A DNA stretch of 64,000 nt from Candidatus Pelagibacter sp. TMED166 (GCA_002171015.1 NHHP01000001.1:4641-68640), one strand, 5' to 3'. Shown: positions 17,774-54,482, counted from the stretch's first letter. Numbers and translations are program-made. The notes: generated by a model from the sequence alone, not told the origin.

Positions 17774-17988
17774 TGAAGAAAAAACATTTGGTGACTTTAG
17801 TAAGAACAATAAAAGATATACTATACGCTCATAGAAAAGCTGATTGGGATGATAAAAATGTTGTAGAAACTGTATCCGAGGTTATAACTAAAAAGTTCTC
17901 AAAATACATGAAAGAACAAGAAGACTTAGAGAGAATGGGTAAGACTGAACAAGATTATCTTGCTCCACCAAATGGGTTAAATCAATGA
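17773..17988 (+). CDS. hypothetical protein
   Basis: 71-aa ORF, coupled to its neighbours (TAATG upstream, ATGA downstream). Confidence 0.5.
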   Translation: MKKKHLVTLVRTIKDILYAHRKADWDDKNVVETVSEVITKKFSKYMKEQEDLERMGKTEQDYLAPPNGLNQ

Positions 17989-18638
17989 ACATCGCTACAT
18001 TAGCTGGACACCTTGCATTTGGATTAATTGCATTTTCATTTTTAGTCAAAGATATTTTTTGGCTTAGACTATTATCGATAGCGGCTAGTTTATTTTCTGT
18101 ATTTTACAATTACACGATACCAACAGAACCAATGTGGTTAGCAATCAATTGGAATTTTATATTCATCTTAGTAAATCTATATCATATCGGAGTAATTCTC
18201 TACGAAAAACGTGAAGTTAAAATGGGTGATAAAGACGAGGAACTCTATCAAACTTTATTCAAAGAAATGTCACCAGTAGAATATCTGAAAATTAGTCGAG
18301 CAGCTAAATGGGAAACACTCAAACCTGGTCAAAGAATCATAACACAAGGTATACAAGTACCAGATTTGTATCTTATTTACAACGGAACTGTTGATGTTGA
18401 GATTGATAATGAACATATAACACAACTTAAAGATGGAGAATTCGTTGGTGAAATGTCATTTTTAACAGAGAAAGTCGCAACCGCGACTTGTAAAGTAAAG
18501 TATGAAGCTCAATGTTTGGTTTGGAAACAAAGAGAGTTCAAGGAGTTATTGAAACGTAATCCATCTCTATATTTCACAATACAATCCGTTTTGAGTGCTC
18601 AGGTATCCAATAAACTAGTAAGTAGTACCAAAAAATAA
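17985..18638 (+). CDS. three-TM membrane protein with C-terminal cyclic-nucleotide-binding-like domain (Popeye-like architecture)
   Basis: 217 aa with three N-terminal hydrophobic helices. The C-terminal part LKPGQRIITQGIQVPDLYLIYNGTVDV...LKDGEFVGEMSFLTEKVATATCKV...FKELLKRNP fits the cNMP-binding beta-roll (G..FGE.s.l......At..a). The canonical phosphate-binding Arg is not present. Confidence 0.6.
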   Translation: MNIATLAGHLAFGLIAFSFLVKDIFWLRLLSIAASLFSVFYNYTIPTEPMWLAINWNFIFILVNLYHIGVILYEKREVKMGDKDEELYQTLFKEMSPVEYLKISRAAKWETLKPGQRIITQGIQVPDLYLIYNGTVDVEIDNEHITQLKDGEFVGEMSFLTEKVATATCKVKYEAQCLVWKQREFKELLKRNPSLYFTIQSVLSAQVSNKLVSSTKK

Positions 18639-18679
18639 GTTTGACGATATTTATTAAAGAATAACTATAGGGATAAGTG

Positions 18680-19207
18680 ATGGTAAAATTAAAAGAATTG
18701 TTAAAAGAATCTCTTGAAAGAAAGTTTGGTGAGCCTTTAGCAACCTTAGATGGTGTGATGAGGGATTATCAGTTGGGTAAACTTTATACCGATAAGGATA
18801 AACCACCTTTCAAGACCGATAAACAAATCCAAGAAGAATTAAACGAGGATGGACATACCGATGTACCGTCATCTATTAGAAAATTGAAAACATCGATTGA
18901 GGATGCCAACGAAATAATAGGTAGGTTACAATCAATGTCCGACGAACAACCACTTCCGAGTTGGTGGAGTGATAAGATTACCTTATCAGCGAATTATTTA
19001 AATAAAGCTCGTGATTATATTTTGAATCCAAATGAATCGGTGAATGAACGTTCCAACCCTAGTGATAAAAAAGAACTTCTCAGAGCTTTGAAAAACTCAA
19101 AAGTAGCTGATGCTTTTTCATTAAACAACGATGAGCTAGTTATAGAGATGACTAGTCCATCAGGTACAGACTTCGTAGTCGGTAATATAAGGAAGTATAA
19201 AGGTTAG
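18680..19207 (+). CDS. leader-family protein 1 (MVKLKELLKE...)
   Basis: The ORF track starts at GTG 18677, but ATG 18680 gives MVKLKELLKESLERKFGEPLATL. The leader and the FGEPL motif are shared with the 21591 ORF. Confidence 0.65.
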   Translation: MVKLKELLKESLERKFGEPLATLDGVMRDYQLGKLYTDKDKPPFKTDKQIQEELNEDGHTDVPSSIRKLKTSIEDANEIIGRLQSMSDEQPLPSWWSDKITLSANYLNKARDYILNPNESVNERSNPSDKKELLRALKNSKVADAFSLNNDELVIEMTSPSGTDFVVGNIRKYKG

Positions 19208-19209
19208 TA

Positions 19210-19923
19210 ATGATAAAGTTAAAAGATTTACTAATAGAAGCACCTAAGATTAAAAAAATAAAAAATGTTTCGGTTCAATATATGGATGCTGAATATGTTG
19301 GTAGTGTAGATTTCGAACCTGTCAGAAAAGCTTGGGTATATAAAAAGGATAAACCGAAAGATAATTATTTTCTAGACGTTATAACTAAAACAAAAAATAA
19401 ATATCAAATAGATTTAGGTAAACATAGAAACTCTGAAAGTGCAAAGAAATTTGCTAGTGGGTATTTGAAAAGAAAATTTACATCAATGGAATCCATTAAA
19501 GAAACAGTATCACACCGAATATTAAGACTATCTAAAGATGGTGCTTCTAAACAATTTCTTAGAGACTTCGATAGAGTGTTTAAGAAGAAGTCTAAAGAAT
19601 TAGGTTATGGTAAATTGAATAAGGACGTTCAGACTCTTAATGTTCAAGTTTCTAAACCAGCAGGTTTTGATAAACCTATTAAGTATGAAAAGATGAAAGG
19701 TATCCAAGTCAGCTATCAATTTGATGAAGGGGTAATACCAGGTAGACCATCTTACAAATATTCATTGGATGATTTCAAAAAAGATTTAAAAAAGTTCAGA
19801 GGATATAAAATAAAACAGGATTTACCAGTGATATTTACCTTAACCAAAGGTGACTTTGCGTATAGTGTAAATTACATTGGGGCTATAAGTGGTGTATTTG
19901 TAATTGGTGGCACAAGAGTATGA
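19210..19923 (+). CDS. leader-family protein 2 (MIKLKDLLIE...)
   Basis: 237-aa ORF with the conserved N-terminal leader. ATGA overlap with the next gene. Confidence 0.65.
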   Translation: MIKLKDLLIEAPKIKKIKNVSVQYMDAEYVGSVDFEPVRKAWVYKKDKPKDNYFLDVITKTKNKYQIDLGKHRNSESAKKFASGYLKRKFTSMESIKETVSHRILRLSKDGASKQFLRDFDRVFKKKSKELGYGKLNKDVQTLNVQVSKPAGFDKPIKYEKMKGIQVSYQFDEGVIPGRPSYKYSLDDFKKDLKKFRGYKIKQDLPVIFTLTKGDFAYSVNYIGAISGVFVIGGTRV

Positions 19924-20300
19924 TTAAACTAAAAGACCTTTTAAAAGAGGGTATAATAAACTCAACACAAAATAAGTTAATAAAGAAAGGTGAATCTTTA
20001 TATAAAAAACTTATGAAAAAATATGATGGTGACAAACAAAAAGTAGAAAAAGAAGTAATTTCTACTTTAAATAAAGATCCTCTAATTAAAAAATTTGTCG
20101 GTGTAGATGCTGTCAGTAATGATTACACAAGATATAGGATAAAAGGAAATGTTGAAGTTTATAAGTTAGAAAGTGGAGGATATCCTATTTTTTATGCTGA
20201 TGTGGTAACACGTGGGTATGATGCTAAAACAGGTAAAGATATTATAAATAAAAAAGTTAAAACAATTAATTTATCAAGAGAATTTGATAGATATCAATAA
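19920..20300 (+). CDS. leader-family protein 3 (MIKLKDLLKE...)
   Basis: 126-aa ORF with the conserved N-terminal leader. Confidence 0.65.
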   Translation: MIKLKDLLKEGIINSTQNKLIKKGESLYKKLMKKYDGDKQKVEKEVISTLNKDPLIKKFVGVDAVSNDYTRYRIKGNVEVYKLESGGYPIFYADVVTRGYDAKTGKDIINKKVKTINLSREFDRYQ

Positions 20301-20312
20301 GGTACGGAATTA

Positions 20313-20561
20313 ATGATTAAGTTAAAGGATATACTAACAGAAGCTAAGAAGTCTGATGTAAAGAAGATGGAAAAGATGGCTAATAAGATTGTTTCTGATA
20401 TGAATAAACTTAATAAGATGTTCGAAAAAATTCATGACGCTCGAACCAGTAATCCAAGTGCTTATCGTACGTTGAAGGATTGGGAAATGGTGGCAACCGA
20501 CGCAAGCGGAAAATACGGTGGTTGGTTCGAATATGTATACGATAGTGATAACGTGGAGTAA
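20313..20561 (+). CDS. leader-family protein 4 (MIKLKDILTE...)
   Basis: 82-aa ORF with the conserved N-terminal leader. Confidence 0.6.
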   Translation: MIKLKDILTEAKKSDVKKMEKMANKIVSDMNKLNKMFEKIHDARTSNPSAYRTLKDWEMVATDASGKYGGWFEYVYDSDNVE

Positions 20562-20563
20562 TT

Positions 20564-21427
20564 ATGAGTAAATCAATAAACGAAAATAAAGTTGAAAAGG
20601 AAAAAATTTTCAAAATGTTGGTCAAACGAGGAGATACTCCTATAGATGCTCGGTATGAGGTAAATAAATCCTACGATTTTGTAAAAAAGAGATATCCCAA
20701 AGCATCAGTTTCAAAAAAAGCCGAAATTATTTCTAGCTTATCCAAATTTGAATCCGTCAAAAAAGAAGGTACCTGTGGTTACGGTGAAAATGGTGAGTTA
20801 GGTGAAGAACCAGCCGGCCCACATCTGTTGAAGAAAACCGAAAGTAGGACAAAATCATTGGGTGAAAAGGATTTGATGAAATATCTGATGAAAAGGTTTA
20901 AGTTCAGCAAAAAGAAAGCTATTGGTACGATGAAGAAAGCTGGTTTCGATACATCCATGTTGAAAGAACAATCAGTTCTTGAAAAGTGTCAAAAAGGATA
21001 CATGACACATCCTACTCGTAAGACAAAAATTTTATTCGGTAAACGATATCCTAATTGTGTGAAAAAAGAAGGCGTTGATACGATGGTCACGGTTGAACAG
21101 GCTGGTAGATTACTTGATAATCTTTGTATCAATTGTGGTGATTTTGCTAACGAAGATTTAAGGAAATGGTTTAAACAGAAATGGGTTAATATAGGGAAGA
21201 AAACAAAGTCTGGTAAACACCCAGCGTGTGGAACTAGTGGTGAAAAAAGAGGATACGCTAAATGCGTCCCAGCTTCCAAAGCCGCCAGTATGTCGAAGAA
21301 ACAAAAAGCAAGTGCTACTCGTAGAAAGAGGTCTGCACAGAACAAAGCCGGTAGAGGTGGTAGAGGAAAACAAGGTGCAGGAGCACAAGGTAGAAAACCA
21401 ATAATGGTTAAGACCGATAAAAAATGA
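20564..21427 (+). CDS. basic protein with Cys-containing short modules (C..GY...PNCVK; WF..KWV...CG...KC)
   Basis: 287 aa. CQKGYMTHPTRKTKILFGKRYPNCVKKEG is paralogous to a segment of the 22504 ORF. It has an RGG/KQG-rich basic tail. Confidence 0.65.
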   Translation: MSKSINENKVEKEKIFKMLVKRGDTPIDARYEVNKSYDFVKKRYPKASVSKKAEIISSLSKFESVKKEGTCGYGENGELGEEPAGPHLLKKTESRTKSLGEKDLMKYLMKRFKFSKKKAIGTMKKAGFDTSMLKEQSVLEKCQKGYMTHPTRKTKILFGKRYPNCVKKEGVDTMVTVEQAGRLLDNLCINCGDFANEDLRKWFKQKWVNIGKKTKSGKHPACGTSGEKRGYAKCVPASKAASMSKKQKASATRRKRSAQNKAGRGGRGKQGAGAQGRKPIMVKTDKK

Positions 21428-21594
21428 TAAAAGAGTTAAAAAAAATTTTAACTTGTGGATGTCAAGATATATTTACTTTAGAGATGATAGAAGAAAAAAA
21501 ATGGAGCAAAAAGTATAAACGGTCAATCAATTGTAACAACCCAAAAGGATTTAGTCAAAAAGCACATTGTGCTGGAAGAAGGAAAAGAAAATGA
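21424..21594 (+). CDS. small leader-family protein 5 (MIKELKKIL..., 56 aa; not in ORF track)
   Basis: ATG at 21424 overlaps the upstream stop (ATGA), and the stop at 21592-21594 overlaps the next ATG (ATGA). Product: MIKELKKILTCGCQDIFTLEMIEEKKWSKKYKRSINCNNPKGFSQKAHCAGRRKRK. Confidence 0.55.
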   Translation: MIKELKKILTCGCQDIFTLEMIEEKKWSKKYKRSINCNNPKGFSQKAHCAGRRKRK

Positions 21595-22043
21595 TAAAAT
21601 TAAAAAAAATAATCAAAGAAACCAAATATTGGGAAGGACGTAAGTTTGGTGAACCACTTCCGACTTTGAAATTGGAACAAGAAGAGCCAGAACATTTCGG
21701 TGGTGGTGAAAACATCGATATATTGGGATTCAAGACAGAGCATTTCGATATCTGTAAATCTGCTGTTATTCTTTACAATAAATTAAAAGAAAAAGATTTA
21801 AATGACACAGCTAAAAAACTAGTTTTATCTTCAGCAAAAGAATTAGACCATTTATTCGAAATGGAAAAAGATGTCGTTGCTGGTAAGAGTCTAGACCATG
21901 ACCCATTGGAACATGGTATTGAATTGGTAAATATAATATCATTTCAACTAGGTAGGGTGGCTGAACTTATCAACGAAGATTTTGAACGTGACACAAATTT
22001 TCTTAAACTACACTTATTAGAAATCGTCAAAAGGAGTAAGTAA
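21591..22043 (+). CDS. leader-family protein 6 (MIKLKKIIKE...)
   Basis: The track ORF begins at 21567, but ATG 21591 gives MIKLKKIIKETKYWEGRKFGEPLPTL. That start matches the other leaders and forms an ATGA overlap with the 56-aa ORF. Confidence 0.65.
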   Translation: MIKLKKIIKETKYWEGRKFGEPLPTLKLEQEEPEHFGGGENIDILGFKTEHFDICKSAVILYNKLKEKDLNDTAKKLVLSSAKELDHLFEMEKDVVAGKSLDHDPLEHGIELVNIISFQLGRVAELINEDFERDTNFLKLHLLEIVKRSK

Positions 22044-22174
22044 TGGATAAATATAATAAATCAGTACAACATAACTGATTCCATCACGCGACTTGGGGGT
22101 CTCCCAAAAGAAAAAATGAGGGTATAGGAGATGTAATTTGGCATTCCCTAACCGAAGATGGTAAGGTTGAAATA

Positions 22175-22501
22175 GTGGATATCAGATTTGGTAACACTAT
22201 ATATCGAAATGTAAGTGTAAATAGATTAAAACCTATTGATGAGGCATCACATTCTCATCCTAGGTCTGGTAAAGAGTTAGACGATAAAAAGAAAAAGAGA
22301 AATAAAATGACAAAAGAGATAGCAGAACAAAAATTAAATTTATTCCTTGAAAAAAATGTTCCTACGAATCCAGCAAAATGGTCGTATTATAAATCTCAAG
22401 CAAAGAAAAAGTTTGATGTTTATCCATCCGCTTATGCCAACGCATGGGCTGCGAAACAATATAAAGCCGCTGGTGGTGGATGGAGAAAAACCAAAGGGTA
22501 A
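22175..22501 (+). CDS. basic protein with PSAYANAWAAKQYK motif; start uncertain
   Basis: The only start in the open frame is GTG at 22175. The frame stays open upstream to an in-frame TGA at 22076-22078, which is preceded by a coupled ATG at 22043 (see findings). Confidence 0.5.
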   Translation: MDIRFGNTIYRNVSVNRLKPIDEASHSHPRSGKELDDKKKKRNKMTKEIAEQKLNLFLEKNVPTNPAKWSYYKSQAKKKFDVYPSAYANAWAAKQYKAAGGGWRKTKG

Positions 22502-22503
22502 TC

Positions 22504-22932
22504 ATGGAAGAAGCAAGAGGAACTTGTTGGGTTGGTTACCAACAAATAGGTATGAAAAAGAAAGGTAATAGAATGGTGCCTAACTGTGTAAAAGAAGAGG
22601 TAGAGATTTACTACGAAGAAGGTGGTAAAGGATACGGATACACATTTGAATTTATTACCAATAAGTCCTTAAAAGAAGCGGAGTACCAAGGTAGAAAGGT
22701 AAAGTTAAATAAAATTATGCAAGGTGATGCTAAAAAGTTTAAAGTTTACGTAAAAAATCCAAAAGGTAACGTTGTTAAAGTAAACTTTGGTCAAGGTGGT
22801 GATGCTAAAGGTGGTACAATGAGAATCAGAAAATCAAATCCTAAGGCTCGAAAAAGTTTTCGGGCTCGTCATAATTGTGATAATCCAGGTCCAAAACACA
22901 AAGCTCGTTATTGGGCTTGTCGGACGTGGTAA
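22504..22932 (+). CDS. basic Cys-motif protein (CW.GY...PNCVKEE; RHNC...KARYWACRTW)
   Basis: ATG 22504 lies just after the upstream stop with an AAGGG Shine-Dalgarno (track start is 22480). CWVGYQQIGMKKKGNRMVPNCVKEE is paralogous to a segment of the 20564 ORF. Confidence 0.6.
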   Translation: MEEARGTCWVGYQQIGMKKKGNRMVPNCVKEEVEIYYEEGGKGYGYTFEFITNKSLKEAEYQGRKVKLNKIMQGDAKKFKVYVKNPKGNVVKVNFGQGGDAKGGTMRIRKSNPKARKSFRARHNCDNPGPKHKARYWACRTW

Positions 22933-23069
22933 ATCACCTCAAAGAAAAAAACCTAGGATATTGGGAGCATTGGTGGAAAGCTATGAAGTTAAGTGTCGCT
23001 CTATTTATACACGCATTTTTACCTGATATTTTAACTGATTACGCATCTAAGGAATTGAATGATGATTAA
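22926..23069 (+). CDS. possible small hydrophobic protein (about 47 aa; not in ORF track)
   Basis: An open frame fills the apparent gap. From GTG 22926 (or ATG 22983) it reads ..NHLKEKNLGYWEHWWKAMKLSVALFIHAFLPDILTDYASKELNDD and overlaps both neighbours by a few nt. The start is unproven. Confidence 0.35.
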   Translation: MVNHLKEKNLGYWEHWWKAMKLSVALFIHAFLPDILTDYASKELNDD

Positions 23070-23394
23070 GTTAAAAGAATTATTAAATCACATAAACGAA
23101 AATACAACATATCTTCCGCCAAAATACAGTAGTCCTGAGGTTAAAAGTATGATTGACAATGACATTAAAAAAATGTCAAAGATATTAGGAAAGGCTTCAC
23201 AACAAGTTATTAAAGTAATGATGGATGGTGTCAAGGGAGGAAAGTATGATGCTATGGATATTATCAGAGGTATAGAGACTGGTAACGTAAATAGAACACA
23301 CGAAGGAGAAAGACCTTTTCTGAGAATGCTGTGGAGAAAAGTTAAAAGTGGATTTAGAAGATACTCCAAAGACGGAAGGTTGAGAAAAAAATGA
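23062..23394 (+). CDS. leader-family protein 7 (MIKLKELLNH...)
   Basis: Tandem ATGs at 23059 and 23062. Conserved leader, ATGA overlap with the next gene. Confidence 0.65.
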   Translation: MIKLKELLNHINENTTYLPPKYSSPEVKSMIDNDIKKMSKILGKASQQVIKVMMDGVKGGKYDAMDIIRGIETGNVNRTHEGERPFLRMLWRKVKSGFRRYSKDGRLRKK

Positions 23395-23759
23395 TTAAAT
23401 TGAAAACCCTTTTAGAGAGAGTTGATTATCACTATGAAGCTTCGGAACTCGTTAAGCGTTATGGATTACGGTCTAAGGTTAAAATCGGTACTGGTAAAAA
23501 CTTCGGTGAATATATACCAGAGACTGATACAATTACTATCAGGCCATCTTATCCAAATCTTAAAGAATTCTACATGACTGTTTTACACGAAATAGGACAC
23601 GCATTGGATGCTAAAAGATTAGGACTAAGAAAATATTTAAAGAAATATGTTCAGGCTGGTACGATGGCAACCTACCGTGGTTTAGACCCACATGATGATA
23701 ATAAGTGGGAAGAAAAAGCCGAAAGGTTTGCTAAAAAAGAATTAAAAAGATGGTTGTAG
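23391..23759 (+). CDS. leader-family protein 8 with HExxH zinc-metallopeptidase motif
   Basis: 122 aa, MIKLKTLLE... leader. ...TITIRPSYPNLKEFYMTVLHEIGHALDAKR has the strand-helix-HExxH layout of minimal zincins (ImmA/IrrE- or SprT-like). Confidence 0.55.
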   Translation: MIKLKTLLERVDYHYEASELVKRYGLRSKVKIGTGKNFGEYIPETDTITIRPSYPNLKEFYMTVLHEIGHALDAKRLGLRKYLKKYVQAGTMATYRGLDPHDDNKWEEKAERFAKKELKRWL

Positions 23760-41425: not shown

Positions 41426-44400
41426 ATGAATAAATTGACCGAATGGTTGACAAAACCATTTTTAGAAAAAGATATTATCAAAGAGGGTGTCAGAGATCCT
41501 GGTATCTTCAAAGCTATATTTTTAGCTGGAGGACCTGGTAGCGGTAAATCATTCGTAGCACAGAAGTTATTCGGTATACCAGAGAAGATAAATGTATCGA
41601 AGACTGGTCTGAAGATGGTAAATCAAGATAACGAACTTGAACTTTTGTTAAAAAAGTATTTTGGTACAACTGATATTGACAATATGCCTGATGAGTTATT
41701 TCAAGATTTGACTGGTGTGGATAAACAAGGTAAACCCGTAGATTACGACACGAGTGGATTAAGAAAGTTTGCTAAATCTTTAAGTAAAGAAAGATTAAGA
41801 CTTTACACCAATGGAAAGTTAGGTGTTATCATAGATGGTACTGGACATAACTTTGGTAAGATTAAAAAAAGAAGAAAAGAATTGATGGATTTAGGATACG
41901 ATACCTATATGGTTTTTGTAAATACCTCATTAAAGATTGCTAGAGAAAGAAATGAAAAAAGAGATAGGGTCGTACCAGACGCTATTGTTAAAAAAAGTTG
42001 GGAAGATGTACAATCAAATTTAGGTGCCTTTCAAGGTTTATTCGGTGGTTCTAACTTTATGATTGTTCAGAATAACAAGATGTTATCAGATGCTCAGATA
42101 AAGAAACATTTTAAGATGTTGGTCAGTAAAGGTATAGATTCATTTTTAAAGAAACCAATTAAGAGTAAGGTTGGTAAAGCTTGGTTACGAAGAGAAAAGA
42201 AACATCAAAAGGTATTTAAAGATCCTGGCCAGTCAAAGTTTTTTGAATCTATAAATATTCCGATAAAAGTAGGTGATACAATCCTTACCGGTAGATTTAA
42301 AAACAAAAAAGTTGTTGTAAAATCAATCGGAAAAGACGACCACGGTATGCCCACAATAAATGGAAAAAAGATAACAACAATTCGTACGATGAAAAACGTT
42401 GATGAGGCACCTAGGGTTCCTAGAAAGAAAGGACAACATCGTGGTTCAAAGTCTCATTCAGATTTATATACGGATGAGAATCCAAAAGGAACAATCAAAG
42501 GATTGAAGTTTGCTACGGTTAAAGATGCAAAAGCATCAGTCAGTAAAATAAATGGAAGTGGTAAAACTCACGCACATAAGATACAAGCAGCTGTAGCTAT
42601 GGAACAGAGAGCTAAAGAAATGGGTAAAGCTTCTCAAGCGGCTGTATATAGAACTTATATCAATAAGATGAAAAAGAAAACAAAAGAGAAAAATGAAGAA
42701 TTTGGATTACCTGCTGGTGAGATACCATCACCAAGTCGTAAGATGGTAAAGAAGATGAAGAAACGTGGTAACACATCGGTTCCCTACGGTAGTGGTTACA
42801 AGAAAGTAAATGAAAATGATAAAGCTGAGTTATACAAATTGTATAGTATGGGTATGAAAGCATTTTCTGGTAGTGCTAAACATAAAGAAATACTAAAGAA
42901 GATAAAAGTTCTAAGAAAAAAATTAGGTATGAATGAACAAAAAGAAATCAAAAAAACTATCGGTATATTCGGTGGTAGATTCCAACCGTTTCATAGTGGA
43001 CATTTAGCCACATATAAATGGTTATCTAAACAAGTGGATGAAGCTTATATAACAACTTCTAATATTAAACAACTTCCAAGACACCCAATGGACTTCAAGG
43101 AAAAAGTCCGTCACATGGTAAAGATGGGTATTCCAAAGAATCGTATTGTTCAAGAAAGAACACCTTATGTAGCAGACAAAGTTTTAAAGAAATTTAATCC
43201 TAATACCACTGCTGTAGTTTATGCTTTTGGACAAAAAGATGCTGGTAGATTAAAAGGTGGTAAGGGTAAATACTTTCAAGATTATAAAAAAAGTAGAGAG
43301 GATATCCGAGGATACAAAGAACATGGATATTTTATCACTGCACCACAATTTGGTGACATGAGTGGTACTAAGATGAGGTCACTATTGGGTGACCCTAGGA
43401 TAGATGATAAAGAAAGAAGAAAATCTTTCAAAAAAGTTTTCGGATATTTCGACCAAGGTATCTATAATATGATGACCAATAAATTCAGAAAGTTATACGA
43501 GGGTATAGAGGACTTTATACTCAAAACAGATTTTAAAGAATTAGTCAACGAAGCAAGTTTAACAGCGATAAACCCAACAGATGATGGCCCACCAACTTTC
43601 TACAGAGGTTTCAATGATTATAAGAATCAATCCAAAAGATGGTTGGATGATATGTACGGTGATACTGGTTGGGAAGTCGTACAATATATTTTAGGAAAAC
43701 ATGCTATAAATCCTGATTATGATTACACCCTTAAATACAACGTAGTTCCTGCTGTAGCTTATGGTCGTAAACAATCTGGTAAATATGGTACTAGATTTGG
43801 TACAGACAATCCAATAAAATCCTATAAAAATTATATAGAAGGAACTGTATTGCATAATATTGGGTATGAGTTGGTAAAATGGATGGGTATTACACCAGAT
43901 GGTAATAATTATACTGGTGTAGAGGTGGAGACTCCAGTGGTACCAGGTATCGGTGATGATAATGTTGGTAATACAGAAAAACAAAAATTAAAACTAAAAG
44001 AGATAAATTTAAATGAAGAAGTAGAAATATTGATTGGGGAAAGGAAAAAACTTTTACCGTCAAGAGACCACAAATATGTTTCGATTGGTTTCGGTAGGTA
44101 TAAATTAAAAGGTAAGGAAAACGAAGACGACGCCGATGTATATTTCAAATCAAAAGATGGAACTTATATAAAATCAAATGACCAAAAAAGTGATAATAAA
44201 AATTTTAAAGAAGGTGTATTACTAGAGGGTGGAGCTTACGGACATTTGAACCATCCTTTTGATGACAAAAATCTTACATTTTCAGATTTTAAAACACTAA
44301 TTATTAATACCCTACAAGGTAAATTAGACAAAGAGGGTGCAGTCACAGAAAAAACAGATGGTCAGAACATAATGATAAGTTGGAAGAACAATAAACTTAT

Positions 44401-45451
44401 CGCCGCTAGAAATAAAGGTCATATAAAAAATCATGGGGCAAACGCACCAGACATTAGTGGTATTCAATCGATGTTTGCTGGTCGTGGAGATATTGAAAAA
44501 GCATTCGTATTTGCAATGAGGGATTTACAAAAGGCCATCGGTAAACTTAGTGATAAACAAAAGGACAAGATATTTGACGAAGGAAAAAAATTCATGTCTT
44601 TAGAAGTAATATATCCAAAGACCGTTAACGTAATACCTTATGATAAATCGTTATTACAATTTCATGGAACGATTGAATACGATACCGACGGTTCTCCGAT
44701 AGGTGAGGATAGGGGTAGTGCACGGATGTTAGCCGGTATGATAAAACAAATAAATCAAGATATACAGAAAGCGTTTAAAATAGAAAAACCATTTATCTCG
44801 AAGTTACCACAAGTAAAGGATTTTAGTAGAAGACAGAAATACTTTTTAGGTAAATTGAATAGATTACAAAAACAATTTGCATTGAGAGGTACGGATACTC
44901 TAGCTGATTATCATCAAGCTTATTGGACTGAATTTATTTTCAACGCTGCTAAACAATACAAATACAACATACCGAACAACGTCTTGGGTAAGTTGACTAA
45001 AAGATGGGCGTTTTTAGATAAATCATATAGAATACCAGATATCAGACGTGAGATACCGAATAAGAATTTTTTGAATTGGGTTCTGAGAACCGACAAAACA
45101 GATTTACAAGGTCTACAAAAAAAACATATTAGGGATTGGGAAGTTTTGTTTTTTGAACTAGGTGCTGAGATATTATCAAACTTATCTGATTTTATCGCGG
45201 CTAATCCAGATAAATCTGCTCAAAAAATTAGAAAAGATTTATCAAAAGCAATAAGTAAAGTGAAGACTTCGAAAGACCCAAAAGTTATCAACACCTTGAA
45301 AACACAGTTGGATAGGTTGAAAGCAATAGGTGGTTTGAAAGCTGTTGTCCCTACTGAGGGAATCACGTTTGTTTTCAAAGGAAAATTGTATAAATATACT
45401 GGTGCTTTCGCACCAGCTAATCAAATTTTAGGAATGTTAAAGTTCGTATAG
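41426..45451 (+). CDS. 1341-aa multidomain protein: P-loop kinase + HxGH (NMNAT/cytidylyltransferase-type) nucleotidyltransferase + KxDG ligase-like domain
   Basis: Walker A GGPGSGKS (41528-41551), with VIIDGTG and RNEKRDRVVP downstream. GIFGGRFQPFHSGH (42962-43003) and MSGTKMR (43358-43378) fit the HxGH / (S/T)xxxxR pair of NMNAT-like enzymes. EKTDGQN (44348-44368, K976) fits motif I of ATP-dependent RNA/DNA ligases. Confidence 0.6.
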   Translation: MNKLTEWLTKPFLEKDIIKEGVRDPGIFKAIFLAGGPGSGKSFVAQKLFGIPEKINVSKTGLKMVNQDNELELLLKKYFGTTDIDNMPDELFQDLTGVDKQGKPVDYDTSGLRKFAKSLSKERLRLYTNGKLGVIIDGTGHNFGKIKKRRKELMDLGYDTYMVFVNTSLKIARERNEKRDRVVPDAIVKKSWEDVQSNLGAFQGLFGGSNFMIVQNNKMLSDAQIKKHFKMLVSKGIDSFLKKPIKSKVGKAWLRREKKHQKVFKDPGQSKFFESINIPIKVGDTILTGRFKNKKVVVKSIGKDDHGMPTINGKKITTIRTMKNVDEAPRVPRKKGQHRGSKSHSDLYTDENPKGTIKGLKFATVKDAKASVSKINGSGKTHAHKIQAAVAMEQRAKEMGKASQAAVYRTYINKMKKKTKEKNEEFGLPAGEIPSPSRKMVKKMKKRGNTSVPYGSGYKKVNENDKAELYKLYSMGMKAFSGSAKHKEILKKIKVLRKKLGMNEQKEIKKTIGIFGGRFQPFHSGHLATYKWLSKQVDEAYITTSNIKQLPRHPMDFKEKVRHMVKMGIPKNRIVQERTPYVADKVLKKFNPNTTAVVYAFGQKDAGRLKGGKGKYFQDYKKSREDIRGYKEHGYFITAPQFGDMSGTKMRSLLGDPRIDDKERRKSFKKVFGYFDQGIYNMMTNKFRKLYEGIEDFILKTDFKELVNEASLTAINPTDDGPPTFYRGFNDYKNQSKRWLDDMYGDTGWEVVQYILGKHAINPDYDYTLKYNVVPAVAYGRKQSGKYGTRFGTDNPIKSYKNYIEGTVLHNIGYELVKWMGITPDGNNYTGVEVETPVVPGIGDDNVGNTEKQKLKLKEINLNEEVEILIGERKKLLPSRDHKYVSIGFGRYKLKGKENEDDADVYFKSKDGTYIKSNDQKSDNKNFKEGVLLEGGAYGHLNHPFDDKNLTFSDFKTLIINTLQGKLDKEGAVTEKTDGQNIMISWKNNKLIAARNKGHIKNHGANAPDISGIQSMFAGRGDIEKAFVFAMRDLQKAIGKLSDKQKDKIFDEGKKFMSLEVIYPKTVNVIPYDKSLLQFHGTIEYDTDGSPIGEDRGSARMLAGMIKQINQDIQKAFKIEKPFISKLPQVKDFSRRQKYFLGKLNRLQKQFALRGTDTLADYHQAYWTEFIFNAAKQYKYNIPNNVLGKLTKRWAFLDKSYRIPDIRREIPNKNFLNWVLRTDKTDLQGLQKKHIRDWEVLFFELGAEILSNLSDFIAANPDKSAQKIRKDLSKAISKVKTSKDPKVINTLKTQLDRLKAIGGLKAVVPTEGITFVFKGKLYKYTGAFAPANQILGMLKFV

Positions 45452-47952: not shown

Positions 47953-49794
47953 ATGGCTGATACAAGTTTATTCAGTAGATTAAGAAGATTATTTTCAACT
48001 AATGTTGTTGTTAGAAACGTTGGTGGAAGAAAACTGAAGGTTAGTGATACTAGTCGTACACAAGCTTATTCAAAAAGTAATCTTGTCGATAGATATCAAA
48101 AGATTTTCACAGGTGCTGGACTGAGTGGATATTCCGATGCGTTGATGACAAAATCAATGAGATTGAATTTATTCAAAGATTATGAAGCAATGGACTCCGA
48201 TGCTATAATATCATCGGCTCTAGATATATATTCCGATGAATCAACAATGAAATCCGAATACGGAGAGGTGTTACAGATTCAAACAGATAATGACCAAATA
48301 AAAGAAATACTACACAATCTATTCTATGATATTGTCAATATTGAATTCAATCTTTGGCCATGGATTCGTAACATGTGTAAGTATGGTGATTTCTTTTTAA
48401 AGTTAGAGATAGACGAAAAGTACGGTATTACTAATGTTGTCCCACTTTCTGTTTATGATGTGTCTAGATTAGAAGGTTTAGATCCTGAGAATCCTGAATA
48501 TGTAAAATTTTTAATCGAGGCTGCGACAGCAGAACATAGGTATAAACAAGAACAATCATCAACAAAAGAAGAATTGGAAAACTATGAGGTCGCACATTTT
48601 AGATTACTATCAGACTCTAATTATTTACCCTATGGTAAATCACAAGTAGAGGGTGCTCGTAAAATATATAAACAATTGACCTTAATGGAAGACGCGATGT
48701 TAATCCATCGTATAATGAGAGCACCTGAGAAAAGAGTATTCAAATTAGATATTGGTAACATACCACCAGCAGAAGTTGATAATTACATGCAACAAGTTAT
48801 CAATAAAATGAAGAAAGCACCTGTTGTTGATGAGACCACCGGTGATTACAACCTCAAATACAATATGCAGAATATTACCGAGGATTTCTTTTTACCTGTC
48901 CGTGGTGGTGATAGTGGTACGAGTATCGATTCTTTACCAGGTTTGACATATGAAGCAACGGATGATATCGAGTATTTAAAGAATAAATTACTATCAGCAC
49001 TTAGGATACCAAAAGCATTTCTAGGGTTCGAAGACCAAATCGGTTCTAAGGCTACCTTAGCAGCAGAGGATGTTCGTTTTGCAAGGACTATAGAAAGGAT
49101 ACAGAGAATTACTCTTTCCGAGTTAACAAAGATTGCAATTGTTCATTTATATGCACAAGGATATCAAGACGCAGAATTGACAAATTTTGAATTGACTTTG
49201 ACTAATCCATCAACAATATATGAACAAGAAAAAATTGAACTTTGGAACAATAAAACTTCTTTAGCTGATTCAATGTTGAGAGACGGATTATGTTCGTCTG
49301 AATGGATATATAAAAATATTTTTAATTTTACCCAAGAAGAAATCAAAGAAATGGACAAACAAATTACATTTGATTATAAAACAAAATTTAGAAGACAACA
49401 AATCGAACAAGAGGGTAATGACCCAGCTGAGAGTGGAGAATCACAAGGGACACCATCGGATTTAGCTTTAGGTAGAACCGGTCATGAGTTGGATGACGAA
49501 GGTGGTTCGGAAGAGGGTGGACAACCAGGTGCTGGAAGACCAAAAGAACCAAATAAATATGGAAAAGATAGTGGAGCGAGAGGAAGAGACCCTTTGGGAG
49601 CTCATGATAAGAAAAAAGGTGGTAGTGGTGCTCCTAAGTATGGTAAGGCTTTAGCCCTATCTCATTACGATTCCCTTAAGAAATCAATGAATTTTAACAA
49701 AAAAGACAGAGAAATCATAACTGAGGTATCAGAATTAGAAGAAGAGTATCAAAATGAGGTAAGTTCTTTCAGTAATGATAAATCAAATGACTAA
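47953..49794 (+). CDS. portal protein
   Basis: 613 aa directly after terL. SALDIYSDEST and the overall size resemble gp20-type portals. It has a Gly/charged C-terminal tail. Confidence 0.75.
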   Translation: MADTSLFSRLRRLFSTNVVVRNVGGRKLKVSDTSRTQAYSKSNLVDRYQKIFTGAGLSGYSDALMTKSMRLNLFKDYEAMDSDAIISSALDIYSDESTMKSEYGEVLQIQTDNDQIKEILHNLFYDIVNIEFNLWPWIRNMCKYGDFFLKLEIDEKYGITNVVPLSVYDVSRLEGLDPENPEYVKFLIEAATAEHRYKQEQSSTKEELENYEVAHFRLLSDSNYLPYGKSQVEGARKIYKQLTLMEDAMLIHRIMRAPEKRVFKLDIGNIPPAEVDNYMQQVINKMKKAPVVDETTGDYNLKYNMQNITEDFFLPVRGGDSGTSIDSLPGLTYEATDDIEYLKNKLLSALRIPKAFLGFEDQIGSKATLAAEDVRFARTIERIQRITLSELTKIAIVHLYAQGYQDAELTNFELTLTNPSTIYEQEKIELWNNKTSLADSMLRDGLCSSEWIYKNIFNFTQEEIKEMDKQITFDYKTKFRRQQIEQEGNDPAESGESQGTPSDLALGRTGHELDDEGGSEEGGQPGAGRPKEPNKYGKDSGARGRDPLGAHDKKKGGSGAPKYGKALALSHYDSLKKSMNFNKKDREIITEVSELEEEYQNEVSSFSNDKSND

Positions 49795-49854: not shown

Positions 49855-50724
49855 ATGGCTCGAAAAATAAAACATTCAAAAATCAAGAATACTGGTATTC
49901 TTTTTGAATTATTGACAAGACAAATCACAGCAGATGTGTTAGCCGGAAAATCAACAAAGTCAGTTGGTATATTGAAGAAATTTTTTAATGAAAAGACAGA
50001 GTTGGGTAAAGAACTTGAACTCTACAAGTTATTGTCAGAAAAAAATTATAATTCAGAAGTCAAAGCTAATGATTTATTAAATGTGGTTATAAAACAAAGA
50101 CAAAACCTAAACAACTCAGACCTACGCAGAGAAAAGTATAATTTGATTAGTTCGATTAAAGAAAATTATAACGTTACAGATTTTTTCAATGGTAGGATTC
50201 CTAATTATAGATTATTGGCATCTATCTATAATATTTTCCAATCTGAGACTACTGATGAGAAATTTAAAGCTGACCAGTTGGTTAATTCTAAATTTACTGT
50301 GTTGGAACATATAACTCATAAAAAGATAGATGATGAGAAAATAAAACAAAAGGTAATCGCCGAATATAGTAAACAAGACAAGGATTTGAGATTATTGGCT
50401 TATGAAATATTAGTAGATAAGTTCAACAAAAAGTATAAATCCCTTGATGAATCACAAAAGAAACTGTTAAAGAATTATATTAATAATATCAGTAATACTA
50501 ATTCATTAAGAGAATATGTTGATAAAGAGGTCACTCGTATAAAATCAGTATTGAAAAAAGAGTTACCTAGGGTAGATGATAAAATTACTAGTATCAAATT
50601 AACAGAAGCGATTAATCAAATAGAAAATTTGACAAAAGGTAAAATTGTTAACGAAAAACAAGTTTTATCTTTGATGAGATATTATGAACTTATTAAGGAG
50701 ATTAGGAATGTCCACAAAGGATAA
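49855..50724 (+). CDS. hypothetical protein (head module)
   Basis: 289-aa ORF between the portal and protease genes. No motif recognised. Confidence 0.65.
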   Translation: MARKIKHSKIKNTGILFELLTRQITADVLAGKSTKSVGILKKFFNEKTELGKELELYKLLSEKNYNSEVKANDLLNVVIKQRQNLNNSDLRREKYNLISSIKENYNVTDFFNGRIPNYRLLASIYNIFQSETTDEKFKADQLVNSKFTVLEHITHKKIDDEKIKQKVIAEYSKQDKDLRLLAYEILVDKFNKKYKSLDESQKKLLKNYINNISNTNSLREYVDKEVTRIKSVLKKELPRVDDKITSIKLTEAINQIENLTKGKIVNEKQVLSLMRYYELIKEIRNVHKG

Positions 50725-51145
50725 ACTCAAAGAGATTATCAGAGAGTTAATCAGACAAGAATTGGAAGAGGTTTCTGTTACGGGTAATCTCGATGGTGGT
50801 GAAGGCCCACCTAGAACTCCTTATGCTTTTTACGGTGGTCGTAAAAAAGATAAAAAGAAAAAGAAAAAAATTACACATGCGGCTGGATATTCAAAAGTAC
50901 ACGAAGGTAAATATCATGAATATCGTAACGATGAATCAATGACACCGAAACAAAAAATCGGTAAGTCGATGAGAGAAATCAGAGATAGTCTGAATGAGTT
51001 AGACAAATTAGTAAAAATGAACGTTCGTTTGAAAAATGAATTAAATGTAGATTCAAGGTCATATTGGAAAAATACCCATAAGGCGTTACGTAGAGTTAGT
51101 GAAAGGTTGGTAAAACTAGCGAACAAGGTCGGTCAATTACAGTAA
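50708..51145 (+). CDS. hypothetical protein with leader-like N-terminus (MSTKDKLKEIIRE...)
   Basis: ATG 50708 has an AAGGAG Shine-Dalgarno 8 nt upstream (track start is 50684). Basic KKDKKKKKK stretch. Confidence 0.55.
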   Translation: MSTKDKLKEIIRELIRQELEEVSVTGNLDGGEGPPRTPYAFYGGRKKDKKKKKKITHAAGYSKVHEGKYHEYRNDESMTPKQKIGKSMREIRDSLNELDKLVKMNVRLKNELNVDSRSYWKNTHKALRRVSERLVKLANKVGQLQ

Positions 51146-51153
51146 GTATTGAT

Positions 51154-51342
51154 ATGCCATTTCAAGAGAACAAAAAATCCTATATGGATACTTTGTTCAG
51201 TATCTCGACTCTGTTGAAAAGATGGCAAGTCGAAATACAGAAGAAAGATGTAGATAAGAATTATATGTTAAAGAGACTTGGACAATGGATTGAGATGTTG
51301 GAAAGTCTTAGACACGAAATTATGATGGGAAAAGATAAATGA
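51154..51342 (+). CDS. hypothetical protein
   Basis: 62-aa ORF with an ATGA overlap onto the protease gene. Confidence 0.5.
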   Translation: MPFQENKKSYMDTLFSISTLLKRWQVEIQKKDVDKNYMLKRLGQWIEMLESLRHEIMMGKDK

Positions 51343-51950
51343 AACAACTAATAGTAGATTATTTGCCGTTTGAAATCAAACCAGAACAAATTAATGAATC
51401 CATGAAGGGTAATAATGGTAAGTTAATTGTTAAGGGTGTTTTACAACGAGCTGAGTCAAAAAATCAAAACGGTAGAATCTACCCGAGGGATATTTTAGTC
51501 AGAGAAGCTAAAAAATACACAGAAGAATTTATAGAACAAAGAAGAGCCATGGGTGAGCTAGACCATCCTGAATCGTCCGTTGTGAATTTACAAAATGTTT
51601 CTCACAATGTCAAGGAAATGCACTTCGAAGGCGATAACTTGATGGGAACCGTCGAGGTTTTAGGAACACCAGCTGGTAACATATTGAAAGAATTATTCAA
51701 AAGTGGTATTAAATTAGGTATCAGTTCTCGTGGAATGGGTTCTGTGGAATCGGTAAACGAGGGTGAAGCACAAGAGGTTCAACCTGATTTCGAACTTATT
51801 GCTTTTGATTTTGTATCCAATCCATCCACACATGGAGCTTTCTTGCATCCAACCAATGAATCAATAAATGAGTCAAAGATAGTTGGTAGAACGTGTGGTG
51901 ATTACTGTAAGGTTGAATCAGTAATAAATGACATCATGAGGGGAAGCTAA
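51339..51950 (+). CDS. prohead core protease (T4 gp21 family)
   Basis: 203 aa (T4 gp21 is about 212 aa). VLQRAESKNQNGRIYPRDIL...AMGELDHPE...NVSHNV...LGISSRGMGS matches conserved gp21-family blocks, including the His and Ser regions. Confidence 0.85.
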   Translation: MKQLIVDYLPFEIKPEQINESMKGNNGKLIVKGVLQRAESKNQNGRIYPRDILVREAKKYTEEFIEQRRAMGELDHPESSVVNLQNVSHNVKEMHFEGDNLMGTVEVLGTPAGNILKELFKSGIKLGISSRGMGSVESVNEGEAQEVQPDFELIAFDFVSNPSTHGAFLHPTNESINESKIVGRTCGDYCKVESVINDIMRGS

Positions 51951-52258
51951 TGAGTTATCTTAATCGAAAAGTTATGAACACTTGGCACGAATTTCGTAAG
52001 ACAACTTGCGAATGTGGTGGTGATTGTTGTTCAGTCAACGAATCCATAGAGGATAAAGCAAGGGCTAAAAAGAAATTTCAGTCTTTAGCGAAACAAGAAG
52101 GTGGGATGAGAGATAAAATGTTTAAGTTGGAACAAGCTTTCTTACGTGACGCCAGACCTGAGAATAGAGAGATTGCAAAACAACTCAAAAAATTATATAA
52201 AGATAATGTTACCAACTTCATGAGAGAAGCTGCTAAACTAACTAAGAAATTAAAATAA
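51950..52258 (+). CDS. hypothetical protein
   Basis: 102-aa ORF, TAATG-coupled at both ends. Confidence 0.55.
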   Translation: MSYLNRKVMNTWHEFRKTTCECGGDCCSVNESIEDKARAKKKFQSLAKQEGGMRDKMFKLEQAFLRDARPENREIAKQLKKLYKDNVTNFMREAAKLTKKLK

Positions 52259-53828: not shown

Positions 53829-54482
53829 ATGTCAAAGAAAATCAAGTTAAAGGATTTACTTAAAGAGAACTTTACAGGTTCGATGATGGGTGGTGTTGTC
53901 TCAAGAAACGCCTTTGGTGAAGAAATGAGTCTATCACATATCGTCAAAGAAAAGTATGGTGATATAGATGAAGAGAAAGTTGATGTAAAACAACTTACTA
54001 AGGAAATATCATCTTATAACGGAATTGGTGAAGCTATCTTCGGTAAATCGAATATATCTAAAATATCGGAGAAATTGAGTTGGATTGCTAAATCTGCTAA
54101 ATCACATACTCTCCAAGAAACTGATGATTGGTTTGATAAGATTACGGTCAATCGTAATATGAAAGAATTGACAGGTTTATCAAAACAGTTTGGTAAGATA
54201 GCTCAAGAGTCAAAGTCTTTACAGGAAAGATTAGGTGCTCTGTATGAAGATATGGGTAACATCCTAGGTAGATACTATGATATAGGAGAAACCCACGTCT
54301 ACGGACATGATTCCGATGATGTAGAGACTTACGATATTGAAGAGAATGCATATGAAGAGTTTTTTCAAAAAGCGATGAAAAAGTTTGGTATTAAATCCCC
54401 AGCGGATTTGGGTGATGATGAGAAGAAAAAATTCTTCAACTATGTGGATAAAAACTATAAAGCAGACAACGAGACTGACTAG
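53829..54482 (+). CDS. leader-family protein 9 (MSKKIKLKDLLKE...)
   Basis: 217-aa ORF in the head module carrying the same leader as the 18677-23759 array, with a 3-residue N-terminal extension. Confidence 0.65.
   Translation: MSKKIKLKDLLKENFTGSMMGGVVSRNAFGEEMSLSHIVKEKYGDIDEEKVDVKQLTKEISSYNGIGEAIFGKSNISKISEKLSWIAKSAKSHTLQETDDWFDKITVNRNMKELTGLSKQFGKIAQESKSLQERLGALYEDMGNILGRYYDIGETHVYGHDSDDVETYDIEENAYEEFFQKAMKKFGIKSPADLGDDEKKKFFNYVDKNYKADNETD

Follow-up and report, generated by a model that had tools for sequence, protein, structure and literature searches.

The 64,000-nucleotide stretch of DNA from Candidatus Pelagibacter sp. TMED166 (GCA_002171015.1 NHHP01000001.1:4641-68640), referred to here as the window, encodes an array of small proteins that share a ten-residue N-terminal leader, M-I-K-L-K-x-[LI]-[LIMV]-x-E, on otherwise mostly unrelated sequences. 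We think it probable that this leader is a T4-type capsid-targeting propeptide that is cleaved off, the cargo being kept in the head and leaving it with the DNA. The leader is constrained at the peptide level and over an exact extent, it is spread on at least about 112 families, its genes are linked to that of a prohead protease, T4-type sites are present in the canonical substrates of such a protease, and the processing site is retained at the junctions of fused cargo proteins. These features of the sequence support the view of the array as a set of packaged proteins, which had been put forward in a preliminary description of this DNA. The window itself is probably a phage contig that was binned into a SAR11 metagenome-assembled genome (MAG), either mis-binned by composition or as a hint of its host, and the Pelagibacter label of the MAG is at best a weak hint of that host.

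In the mechanism that we propose, the N-terminal half of the leader (Leu4, Ile/Leu7, Lys-rich and amphipathic) would dock the nascent cargo on an acidic scaffold core in the prohead. After closure of the shell a gp21-family serine protease would cut after Glu10 at [LI]-x-E, freeing the mature cargo in the capsid as the scaffold is degraded, and the mature cargo would be delivered to the next host cell along with the DNA. Because the tag is just ten residues at the start of a gene, any open reading frame (ORF) could gain or lose the address, which would account for a hypervariable array of interchangeable cargo genes at 18.7-23.8 kb together with further copies in the head module.

Leader copies in the window

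The six-frame translation of the window was searched with the strict pattern K[LI]K[DEKT][LI][LI], which gave nine matches, all on the + strand and each lying one to five residues past an ATG start codon. When the residues of the 57 gene products were shuffled 2000 times, the mean number of matches was 0.154 anywhere and 0.005 in the first 14 residues, as compared with nine and eight observed; the recurrence of the leader is far beyond chance. The copies in the array are listed here, with a slash marking the predicted cut and with isoelectric points given as pI.

18680..19207, + strand: cargo A, 175 residues; leader MVKLKELLKE/S, then ERKFGEPLATL; predicted mature pI 5.2
19210..19923, + strand: cargo B, 237 residues; leader MIKLKDLLIE/A; two cargo modules with an internal I-K-E98/T at the junction
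19920..20300, + strand: cargo C, 126 residues; leader MIKLKDLLKE/G; basic, pI 9.7; singleton family
20313..20561, + strand: cargo D, 82 residues; leader MIKLKDILTE/AKKSD
21424..21594, + strand: ORF E, 56 residues, starting MIKELKKILT...; doubtful member; small, basic, Cys-rich protein (CNNPKGFSQKAHCAGR)
21591..22043, + strand: cargo F, 150 residues; leader MIKLKKIIKE/T plus GRKFGEPLPTL
23062..23394, + strand: cargo G, 110 residues; MIKLKELLNHINE/N, with His in place of Glu10 and I-N-E next at 11-13
23391..23759, + strand: cargo H, 122 residues; MIKLKTLLE/R; HEIGH zincin-like metallopeptidase of the MPTase-PolyVal / ArdC type

The L/I-x-E tripeptide is found at residues 8-10 in A, B, C, D and F, at 7-9 in H, and at 11-13 in I and J, two proteins encoded in the head module. 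Among the seven strict array copies, nucleotide identity is 0.705 over codons 1-10; it falls to 0.289 for the 30 bases that precede the start codon, and past the leader it is 0.311 in the first block of 30 bases and 0.292 in the second. Within the leader, identity is 0.50 at codon position 3 and 0.76 at positions 1 and 2, and the Leu, Lys, Ile and Glu codons of the leader track the background usage of the genome. Because the identity is confined to the coding decapeptide and the third positions are freer, selection acts on the peptide and not on the DNA. In A and F the leader is directly followed by a second motif, RKFGEPLPTL (18722-18754 and 21636-21668 in the window, corresponding to residues 15-25 of A and 16-26 of F).

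These observations bear on several parts of the preliminary description. The ten start coordinates and N-terminal peptides that it gave are all correct, eight of the ten leaders do end in L/I-x-E, and its view that the variation in codons between copies reflects selection on the peptide agrees with the identities above, 0.705 in the leader as opposed to 0.29-0.31 in the flanks. Of the other two, G has His10 but does have I-N-E at 11-13, and E has no L/I-x-E at 8-10. The leader-like start of E is, moreover, not kept in its homologs from the relatives L085, L121 and L123, and E probably does not belong to the set; the G homolog in L140 starts with the canonical MIKLKDLLGE. The statement that the downstream sequences are unrelated holds for most copies, but A and F have RKFGEPLPTL in common, modules of the A and D types are fused in L086, and B is itself a fusion of two modules. 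A cleavage site had also been assigned at Glu13 of J; this residue is not kept in relatives, in which the conserved site is an [LI]-E-E at about residue 21.

The head module and spread among relatives

The genes of the head module, preceded by that of a large kinase-like protein, are as follows.

41426..45451, + strand: AAA_33/Zeta-like kinase and cytidylyltransferase protein, 1341 residues
46360-47949: large terminase
47953..49794, + strand: portal protein, gp20 family (Pfam Portal_T4, 268.6 bits)
50708..51145, + strand: head-module protein J, 145 residues; extended leader MSTKDKLKEIIRE; conserved L-E-E21/VSVTGN
51339..51950, + strand: prohead protease, T4 gp21 family (Peptidase_S77, 99.3 bits with a cut-off of 27, 2.5e-28; PHROG 207)
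51950..52258, + strand: CxCGGxCC protein, 102 residues; leaderless in the window
53829..54482, + strand: head-module protein I, 217 residues; extended leader MSKKIKLKDLLKE/NFTG
54806..55942, + strand: scaffold candidate, 378 residues; pI 4.2, 35% Asp plus Glu, 15 [LI]-x-E sites; directly upstream of the capsid gene
55963..57615, + strand: major capsid protein, Gp23 family (Pfam 261.6 bits, 1.9e-77); predicted site L-I-D-E66/S

The order of portal, small proteins, protease, scaffold and capsid protein parallels that of T4 genes 20-67-68-21-22-23, with J placed between portal and protease as are gp67 and gp68 in T4. The assignments of a gp21-family protease and a gp23-like capsid protein, made earlier from the sequence, are borne out by the Pfam scores for Peptidase_S77 and Gp23 given above. 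Alignment of the protease to T4 gp21 shows that both catalytic motifs are kept, the His motif being GELDHP here and GELNHP in T4, and the Ser motif GISSRG and GVSSRG, so that the window encodes a gp21-family protease with intact catalytic motifs together with a gp23-type capsid protein carrying a homologous predicted cleavage site. In the capsid-protein alignment Q-L-I-D-E66/S falls on the sites of T4 gp23 (F-L-T-E65/A) and gp24 (L-L-R-E10/S), and L-I-D-E66 is invariant in 11 unique relatives. The protease has near its own N-terminus an I18-x-E20/S21 that is invariant in 29 relatives with a variable middle residue; S-I-N-E178, near the protease C-terminus and considered as a second auto-processing site, was dropped, its Glu being present in 10 of the 29. 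We regard the protein encoded at 51339..51950 as the presumptive leader-processing enzyme. The acidic scaffold of the preliminary description is upheld by composition (pI 4.2, 35% Asp plus Glu) and position but not by any detectable homology to gp22, and BLAST comparisons of the scaffold candidate, I and J with T4 gp22, gp67 and gp68 gave nothing significant. The scaffold candidate would be the docking partner of the leader.

Other proteins of the module also carry leaders or sites. Homologs of J in phages immuto and Mel-JY01 retain [LI]-E-E ahead of xTGxxxG, and a homolog of I, encoded right after the protease in Mel-JY01, has '...VIAE/NVSG'. Orthologs of the 102-residue CxCGGxCC protein in relatives bear the leader MIKLKELIKE/ECNCG, some of them with Asp10. 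The 1341-residue protein has the N-terminal sequence '...KDIIKE20/GVRDPGIFKA', to be compared with MIKLKDILNE/GVYDPGIFKA in its small homologs, and may as judged from this likeness be a further candidate substrate of the protease. Its gene adjoins that of a GH108 lysozyme just upstream of the head module; genes annotated as nucleotidyltransferases (NadR-type, cytidylyltransferase-like) occupy a similar position in immuto and Mel-JY01 and were compared by position only. Between protease and scaffold candidate lies a very basic 339-residue protein (52258-53277, pI 10.3) with an N-terminal DUF3008 and one [LI]-x-E site.

The spread of the leader was followed in 80 relatives gathered through the protease (75-98% identity, from marine metagenomes) and four gathered through the primase adjoining the array, using the pattern M-[ILV]-K-[LI]-K-x-[LIVM]-[LIVM], in which positions 4, 7 and 8 are restricted and position 10 is free. 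With the window included, there are 83 unique leader proteins in about 19 cargo families, and the occurrences match the strand of the genes in 100 of 101 cases; the conserved leader on variable cargo that the preliminary description proposed to look for in related genomes is thus found among close relatives. Glu10 is present in 69 of the 83 proteins, compared with a background Glu frequency of 6%, and Leu4 and Ile/Leu7 are each present in 80 and [LIMV]8 in all 83. Position 9 varies freely, with K, S, N and T among its residues, and conservation stops at residue 10. A motif (W)x-RKFGEPLPTL follows the leader, after a spacer of 4-6 residues, in 38 of the 83 (L001-L088), which belong to several otherwise unrelated families.

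A wider search of IMG/VR contigs with a degenerate back-translation of the leader gave at least 132 matches at a minimum of 120 loci, nearly all of them at ORF starts, and dozens more families; 35 of the 132 matches listed sit at loci showing no homologs of window proteins. From all fetched sequence there are at least 227 unique complete leader ORFs of 61-759 residues (median 144), forming at least about 112 clusters of cargo at the level of BLAST. An exhaustive search of a library of 1.84 billion proteins with a 35-residue module gave 17 significant representatives; with so short a query the figure is a weak lower limit and does not measure how far the leader is spread. Similarity does not reach into the upstream DNA, the outcome that had been named as speaking against a peptide signal: with one representative taken from each of 23 families, nucleotide identity is 0.31-0.34 upstream (0.34 at positions -30 to -1), 0.75 in the leader and 0.31 downstream, and the only upstream feature common to them is a generic GGA-type ribosome-binding site near -10.

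The leader genes are clustered beside the protease. Of the 78 strict-leader ORFs in the 80 protease-anchored loci, 71 are found in the 3 kb that follow the stop codon of the protease gene, 50 of them in the first 1 kb, even though the sequence sampled upstream of the protease was double that sampled downstream. The F family, which is in the distal array in the window, is found directly after the protease in relatives. The flanks of the array are conserved, with a 217-residue membrane protein that binds cyclic nucleotide monophosphates (cNMP) upstream and a PDDEXK protein and the primase downstream, and the cargo set between them differs among the window, L085, L086, L087 (which has the H ortholog only), L088 (none) and the Tara contig L208. 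As a hypervariable hotspot the distal array resembles the ip loci of the T-even phages. The gene of the membrane protein (17985-18638) is an unusual one for a phage; its product combines a Popeye-like domain (POPDC1-3, 1.7e-14) with a cyclic-nucleotide-binding domain (7.2e-14), and in relatives the array is bounded on its left by this gene, which is conserved there.

The lineage is distant from the cultured T4-like phages. Identity to the window capsid protein is 57% for the uncultured 484-kb phage LR756508, 51-54% for Microcystis phage Mel-JY01 and Flavobacterium phage immuto, 37.5% for Rhodothermus phage RM378 and about 30% for the T4-like pelagiphages and cyanophages. No near match to the head module at the DNA level was found among deposited phages.

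Cargo proteins and fusions

The F family is an abundant marine one with 531 database homologs, none of them annotated, and Glu10 is invariant in it. The 120 of these that were listed have the leader or a variant of it at their start; fourteen begin MNEHY or MNENY, P0062, P0066 and P0071 being among them. At the only such locus that was inspected (L208, 4022-4468), the leader MIKLKKIMNE is encoded in frame just upstream, and the start has been called at Met8 of the leader. An AlphaFold2 (AF2) model of F has a disordered segment at residues 1-35, which contains RKFGEPLPTL, and a four-helix core, with a predicted local distance difference test (pLDDT) of about 77. Comparison of the models of F and B (pLDDT about 77) with folds in the PDB gave no significant match, the best having E values of 2.7 for F and, with a template modelling (TM) score of 0.26, 3.7e-3 for B. 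The second motif may be a further docking element that defines a subclass of cargo.

Fusions between cargos are instructive as to the two halves of the leader. The C-terminal module of B (residues 96-237) occurs in about 90 clusters as a standalone protein of 140-155 residues with its own leader (MIKLKDLITE/TVSD...). In B the junction is SMESIKE98/TVSH, with E98 at least 90% conserved, and the AF2 model shows two domains joined by a disordered linker at 91-97. A NUDIX-zincin fusion (L085_7563) has the junction MRNVLLE/RVDY, a PAP2-zincin fusion (L086_8401) contains a complete internal MIKLKPLLE/RVDY, and P0241 has an internal NKIKLKSLLKE/TKVWERKFGEPLPT. These four independent fusions all retain [LI]-x-E at the junction. 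In L086 the body of D is fused behind an A-type N-domain at '...TITE/AKKSD'. Where the internal leaders are decayed, as in B and L085, the processing half, [LI]-x-E, survives, as would be expected if the junction is still cut but targeting is no longer needed.

Searches of the ten window proteins against Pfam and PHROGs gave nothing beyond a sub-threshold zincin match for H. For the H family, however, PF18818 (MPTase-PolyVal) matches 20 of 20 sampled members (best E value 9.9e-6), the PHROG match is to the metallo-protease PHROG 87, and two members are named 'antirestriction protein ArdC' by JGI. Among solved structures, sequence and profile searches with H led to nothing but a spurious match to a designed repeat protein. 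E9 and R10 do not vary in the family, and the Glu and the hydrophobic residue two before it are kept even where the residues upstream of them differ. A large subgroup (P0269, P0273 and P0275 among its members) starts with MGKFKKMMESSFLLE/R instead of MIKLK... and keeps the invariant L-x-E/R; this start may represent a second type of leader in related phages.

The leader-headed proteins of relatives include a Zeta-toxin/AAA_33 kinase-like P-loop protein, an RNase_T exonuclease, NUDIX hydrolases, a PAP2 phosphatase, and a protein combining an M23 peptidase with a phage lysozyme. A protein of L095 matches the arginine ADP-ribosyltransferase Vis (PDB 4xzj) with an E value of 0.0018 and has the R, S-T-x and E-x-E motifs in register; it is probably an arginine ADP-ribosyltransferase, of the same class of enzyme as T4 Alt. 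Roles of the cargos in counteracting host defences are suggested by cargo class only, namely by the ArdC-type zincin, the probable ADP-ribosyltransferase and the peptidoglycan hydrolases.

Many of the window cargos are very basic, with a pI of 9.5-10.3 for B, C, G, H and J, and so are the small leaderless genes of the array (20564-21427, 21424-21594, 22175-22501 and 22480-22932). The products of the latter have Cys motifs in common (CNNPKGFSQKAHCAGR and NCDNPGPKHKARYWACR; PNCVKKE/PNCVKEE) and there is also a DUF5872-like SAYANAWA segment; they may be DNA-binding internal proteins. One leaderless array protein, of 287 residues, has a homolog in a relative (L086_5110) that does bear the leader, as MIKLKDILE/GTCGYG.

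Elsewhere in the window, a 1051-residue ORF (25286-28441) fuses an Mre11-like (Metallophos) to a Rad50-like (AAA_23) domain; in T4 the corresponding proteins are encoded by the separate genes 47 and 46. The sequence MVKIKNILTE (26327) lies in frame inside this ORF, at the boundary of the two domains, and since it is not at a gene start it was rejected as a member of the set. It is kept in L085 and L086 (MIKIKNILTE/D, the final residue being E or D) and might be genuinely processed, be left over from a former start, or match by chance. A 149-residue protein of the baseplate/tail region (1412-1861) starts MTKKQLVKIIQE/VVRRE, which is leader-like, has I-Q-E at 10-12 and resembles the extended form seen in J. 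Two giant ORFs, of 4084 residues (28687-40941) and 1492 residues (7495-11973), have zero Pfam matches and presumably encode virion or fibre components. A tRNA scan of the window found none.

Known systems and competing explanations

The closest known parallel is with phage T4, in which gp21 cuts after L/I-X-E, removing 65 residues from gp23, 10 from gp24 and short N-termini from IPI, IPII, IPIII and Alt (PMC9958956; PMC9026906). The first ten residues of IPIII, its capsid-targeting sequence (CTS), suffice for encapsidation, with positions 4 and 7 acting in targeting and 8 and 10 in processing, and Asp10 blocks processing but not targeting (PMC9026906). In the T-even phages the ip genes are recognised by a common N-terminal signal and comprise at least ten families in a genomic hotspot (PMC12373910). 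The N-termini of the relevant T4 proteins, from the translated T4 record, are these.

IPII and IPIII: MKTYQEFIAE
gp24: MAKINELLRE
Alt: MELITELFDE
gp22: MLKEQLIAE

As in T4, an N-terminal peptide of about ten residues is common to otherwise unrelated proteins (which in T4 are non-essential), with hydrophobic residues at 4, 7 and 8 and Glu at 10, ending in the L/I-x-E site of an S77 protease. The analogy is closer than the preliminary description had it, in that the constrained positions 4, 7, 8 and 10 of the leader are, at the sequence level, the ones mapped for function in the IPIII CTS. As with the T-even ip genes, some of the leader genes belong to the head module and others to a hypervariable hotspot. 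T4 packages Alt, an ADP-ribosyltransferase, and the cargos here likewise include a probable ADP-ribosyltransferase and an anti-restriction-type protein, the latter to be compared with IPI-III. There are also clear differences. The leader here is Lys-rich and of another sequence, in a distant 'far-T4' marine lineage; MIKLKDLLKE has two of ten identities to the IPII/IPIII CTS and five of ten to gp24 MAKINELLRE, ten residues being too short for statistics. The cargo comprises at least about 112 families, many of them recognisable enzymes, as opposed to about ten Ip families in the T-evens, and both RKFGEPLPTL and cargo-cargo fusions that keep the site are frequent. For the phages described here packaging and cleavage are, moreover, inferred.

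Two further systems deserve comparison. In the giant phages phiKZ, 201phi2-1 and SPN3US many head-internal proteins are cut after Glu by a diverged gp21 homolog, and the propeptide is proposed to target them to the prohead (PMC5694885); the SPN3US paralogs gp53 and gp54 have an N-terminal MANFVKSKLARESVE in common (PMC5694885). The propeptides of these phages are mostly of more than 100 residues, however, with no universal decapeptide, the motif is S/A-x-E rather than [LI]-x-E, and a portable tag on a hundred unrelated families has not been reported there. Polyvalent proteins are effectors predicted to enter with the invading DNA and to be processed into modules by a peptidase (Iyer et al. 2017; PMC5512222). 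Their domains overlap with the cargos here, including the MPTase-PolyVal zincin, ADP-ribosyltransferases, kinases, and enzymes of nucleotide metabolism or attacking peptidoglycan (PMC5512222), and because the cargo classes match these known effectors co-delivered with DNA they support capsid packaging and ejection. Polyvalent polypeptides have 2-15 domains, whereas the cargos here are mostly single small modules, each with its own tag, and only occasionally two-module fusions, and the processing enzyme here would be the prohead serine protease rather than a zincin.

A number of points weigh against a packaged and ejected cargo. Docking, cleavage, retention in the virion and ejection are all steps that we infer, and no cultured phage or virion proteome was found that carries these proteins. 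A tblastn search with F of 50,697 deposited phage genomes gave no match, and the head modules of the closest cultured relatives, Mel-JY01 and immuto, do not have the exact leader. The [LI]-x-E motif is low in information, Glu and Leu being common residues and the scaffold candidate alone having 15 sites. The likeness of leader and CTS appears to be one of architecture, for which homology is not demonstrable. No known set of capsid cargo comes near about 112 families; the NUDIX, exonuclease and phosphatase proteins could as readily be enzymes of ordinary early functions in the cytoplasm; and RKFGEPLPTL has no T4 counterpart. Some orthologs are leaderless, as at 51950-52258 in the window, or have Asp, His, Thr or Arg at position 10. 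Lastly, the linkage of leader and protease was computed on partial loci rather than whole genomes.

It is possible that the leader targets the cargos and is cut, but that these are components of assembly or of the core, such as accessories of the scaffold, size determinants or internal proteins condensing the DNA, which are degraded or stay inert, and not ejected effectors. This would fit the position of most strict-leader genes in relatives, between the protease and the scaffold and capsid genes, T4's place for gp67, gp68 and gp22; it would also suit the many small, very basic window cargos (pI 9.5-10.3), which are like DNA-binding internal proteins, and the failure of F and B to match an enzyme-like fold. 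We nonetheless consider it rather unlikely, since many of the cargos are clear enzymes with no obvious role in assembly (NUDIX, Zeta-like kinase, RNase_T, PAP2, M23 and lysozyme, zincin and the probable ADP-ribosyltransferase), the cargo set is hypervariable between close relatives in a manner atypical of assembly components, and the CTS-bearing proteins of T4 are non-essential effectors (PMC9958956; PMC12373910).

The leader could also act as a peptide in some way unconnected with the capsid, as a docking tag, a degron or timer, a chaperone or localisation signal, or a nascent chain that favours expression. A repertoire of about 112 families exceeds known capsid cargo and includes enzymes of an early cytoplasmic type, leader genes occur at loci without homologs of window proteins (35 of the 132 matches listed), and RKFGEPLPTL hints at an additional interaction not known from T4, all of which would be accommodated. 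Such functions seem to us improbable, however, because they leave unexplained why the conserved block ends exactly at a Glu after [LIMV]-x, why the tripeptide alone survives at decayed fusion junctions, why strict-leader genes cluster beside the prohead protease, and why the conserved positions are the mapped positions of the T4 CTS. Protein export in particular would call for a hydrophobic core long enough for Sec, Tat or lipoprotein signals (about 7-15 uninterrupted hydrophobic residues), whereas in MIKLKDLLKE charges alternate with Leu/Ile and the longest hydrophobic run is two.

Finally, the repeat could owe nothing to the peptide and be a feature of the nucleic acid (a translation-initiation enhancer, a recombination cassette or a relic of repeated duplication). 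The codons of the leader are rich in A and T (ATG ATT AAA TTA AAA ...), as is favoured at the 5' ends of genes, a common 30-nucleotide block could promote the exchange of cassettes in a hypervariable array, and T4-type phages are reported to shuffle genes through conserved intergenic promoter-stem-loop (PeSL) motifs (PMC2839356, PMC4122927); but we judge this explanation very improbable, as the similarity begins at the ATG and stops at codon 10 with the upstream 30 nucleotides at a background of 0.29-0.34 and with no feature there beyond a GGA ribosome-binding site of generic type, third codon positions are less alike than the first two (0.50 as against 0.76) and the choice of Leu, Lys and Ile codons is that of the background, richness in A/U does not explain Glu10 or Leu7/8, internal copies in fused ORFs, at which no initiation takes place, keep the motif, and about 112 unrelated families rule out simple paralogy. 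Nor is there conserved intergenic DNA of the PeSL type, identity over the 60 nucleotides upstream being at the background level of 0.31-0.34 when that of the leader is 0.75, and in many cases the leader gene overlaps the stop codon of the gene before it, which leaves no intergenic space.

We thus return to a cleaved, capsid-targeting leader as the preferred reading, and to the question of what would be new in it. The claim that no system with this leader had been described stands for the leader strings themselves, as MIKLKD, MIKLKN and MIKLKE led to no relevant paper in the searchable literature, but not for the concept, which is known from the T-even ip genes. The principle, that of the T4 CTS and the ip hotspot, is not new; what is new is the leader sequence, its occurrence in a remote, environmentally abundant part of the T4 superfamily, a repertoire at least ten times larger and rich in enzymes, and the extra motif RKFGEPLPTL. 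A specialist would not be surprised by a CTS in a phage of the gp21 type, and the surprise lies in the scale and in the prospect that ejected effectors can be read from metagenomes by a ten-residue pattern. We are more tentative, and somewhat short of persuaded, about the fullest form of the proposal, that an abundant uncultured marine far-T4 lineage, possibly infecting SAR11, loads a rapidly changing set of enzymes, of at least 112 families and including fusions that are cut apart at the sites they retain, by means of a universal ten-residue code and injects them with its DNA.

One practical consequence is for gene calling, which should take account of the leader: at least one public start is mis-called seven codons downstream, at Met8, and 13 further entries look similarly shortened. 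If the leader does act as proposed, the 'ejectome' of environmental phages could be listed from sequence alone by the leader pattern. The class of proteins that T4 delivers turned out to consist of dedicated anti-restriction and host-takeover factors, and such proteins are elsewhere very hard to recognise; no larger set of proteins addressed to a capsid is known than the leader proteins would form, and candidate genes for countering host defences could readily be drawn from it. RKFGEPLPTL would be the mark of a separate class of docking within the head, and the leader itself would serve, outside the E. coli/T4 system, as a second, unrelated minimal and portable tag with which foreign proteins could be loaded into phage heads. 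The CTS principle, known from the T-even coliphages, would hold in a remote part of the T4 superfamily as well, and its occurrence there would suggest that the mechanism is either ancient or easily re-invented.

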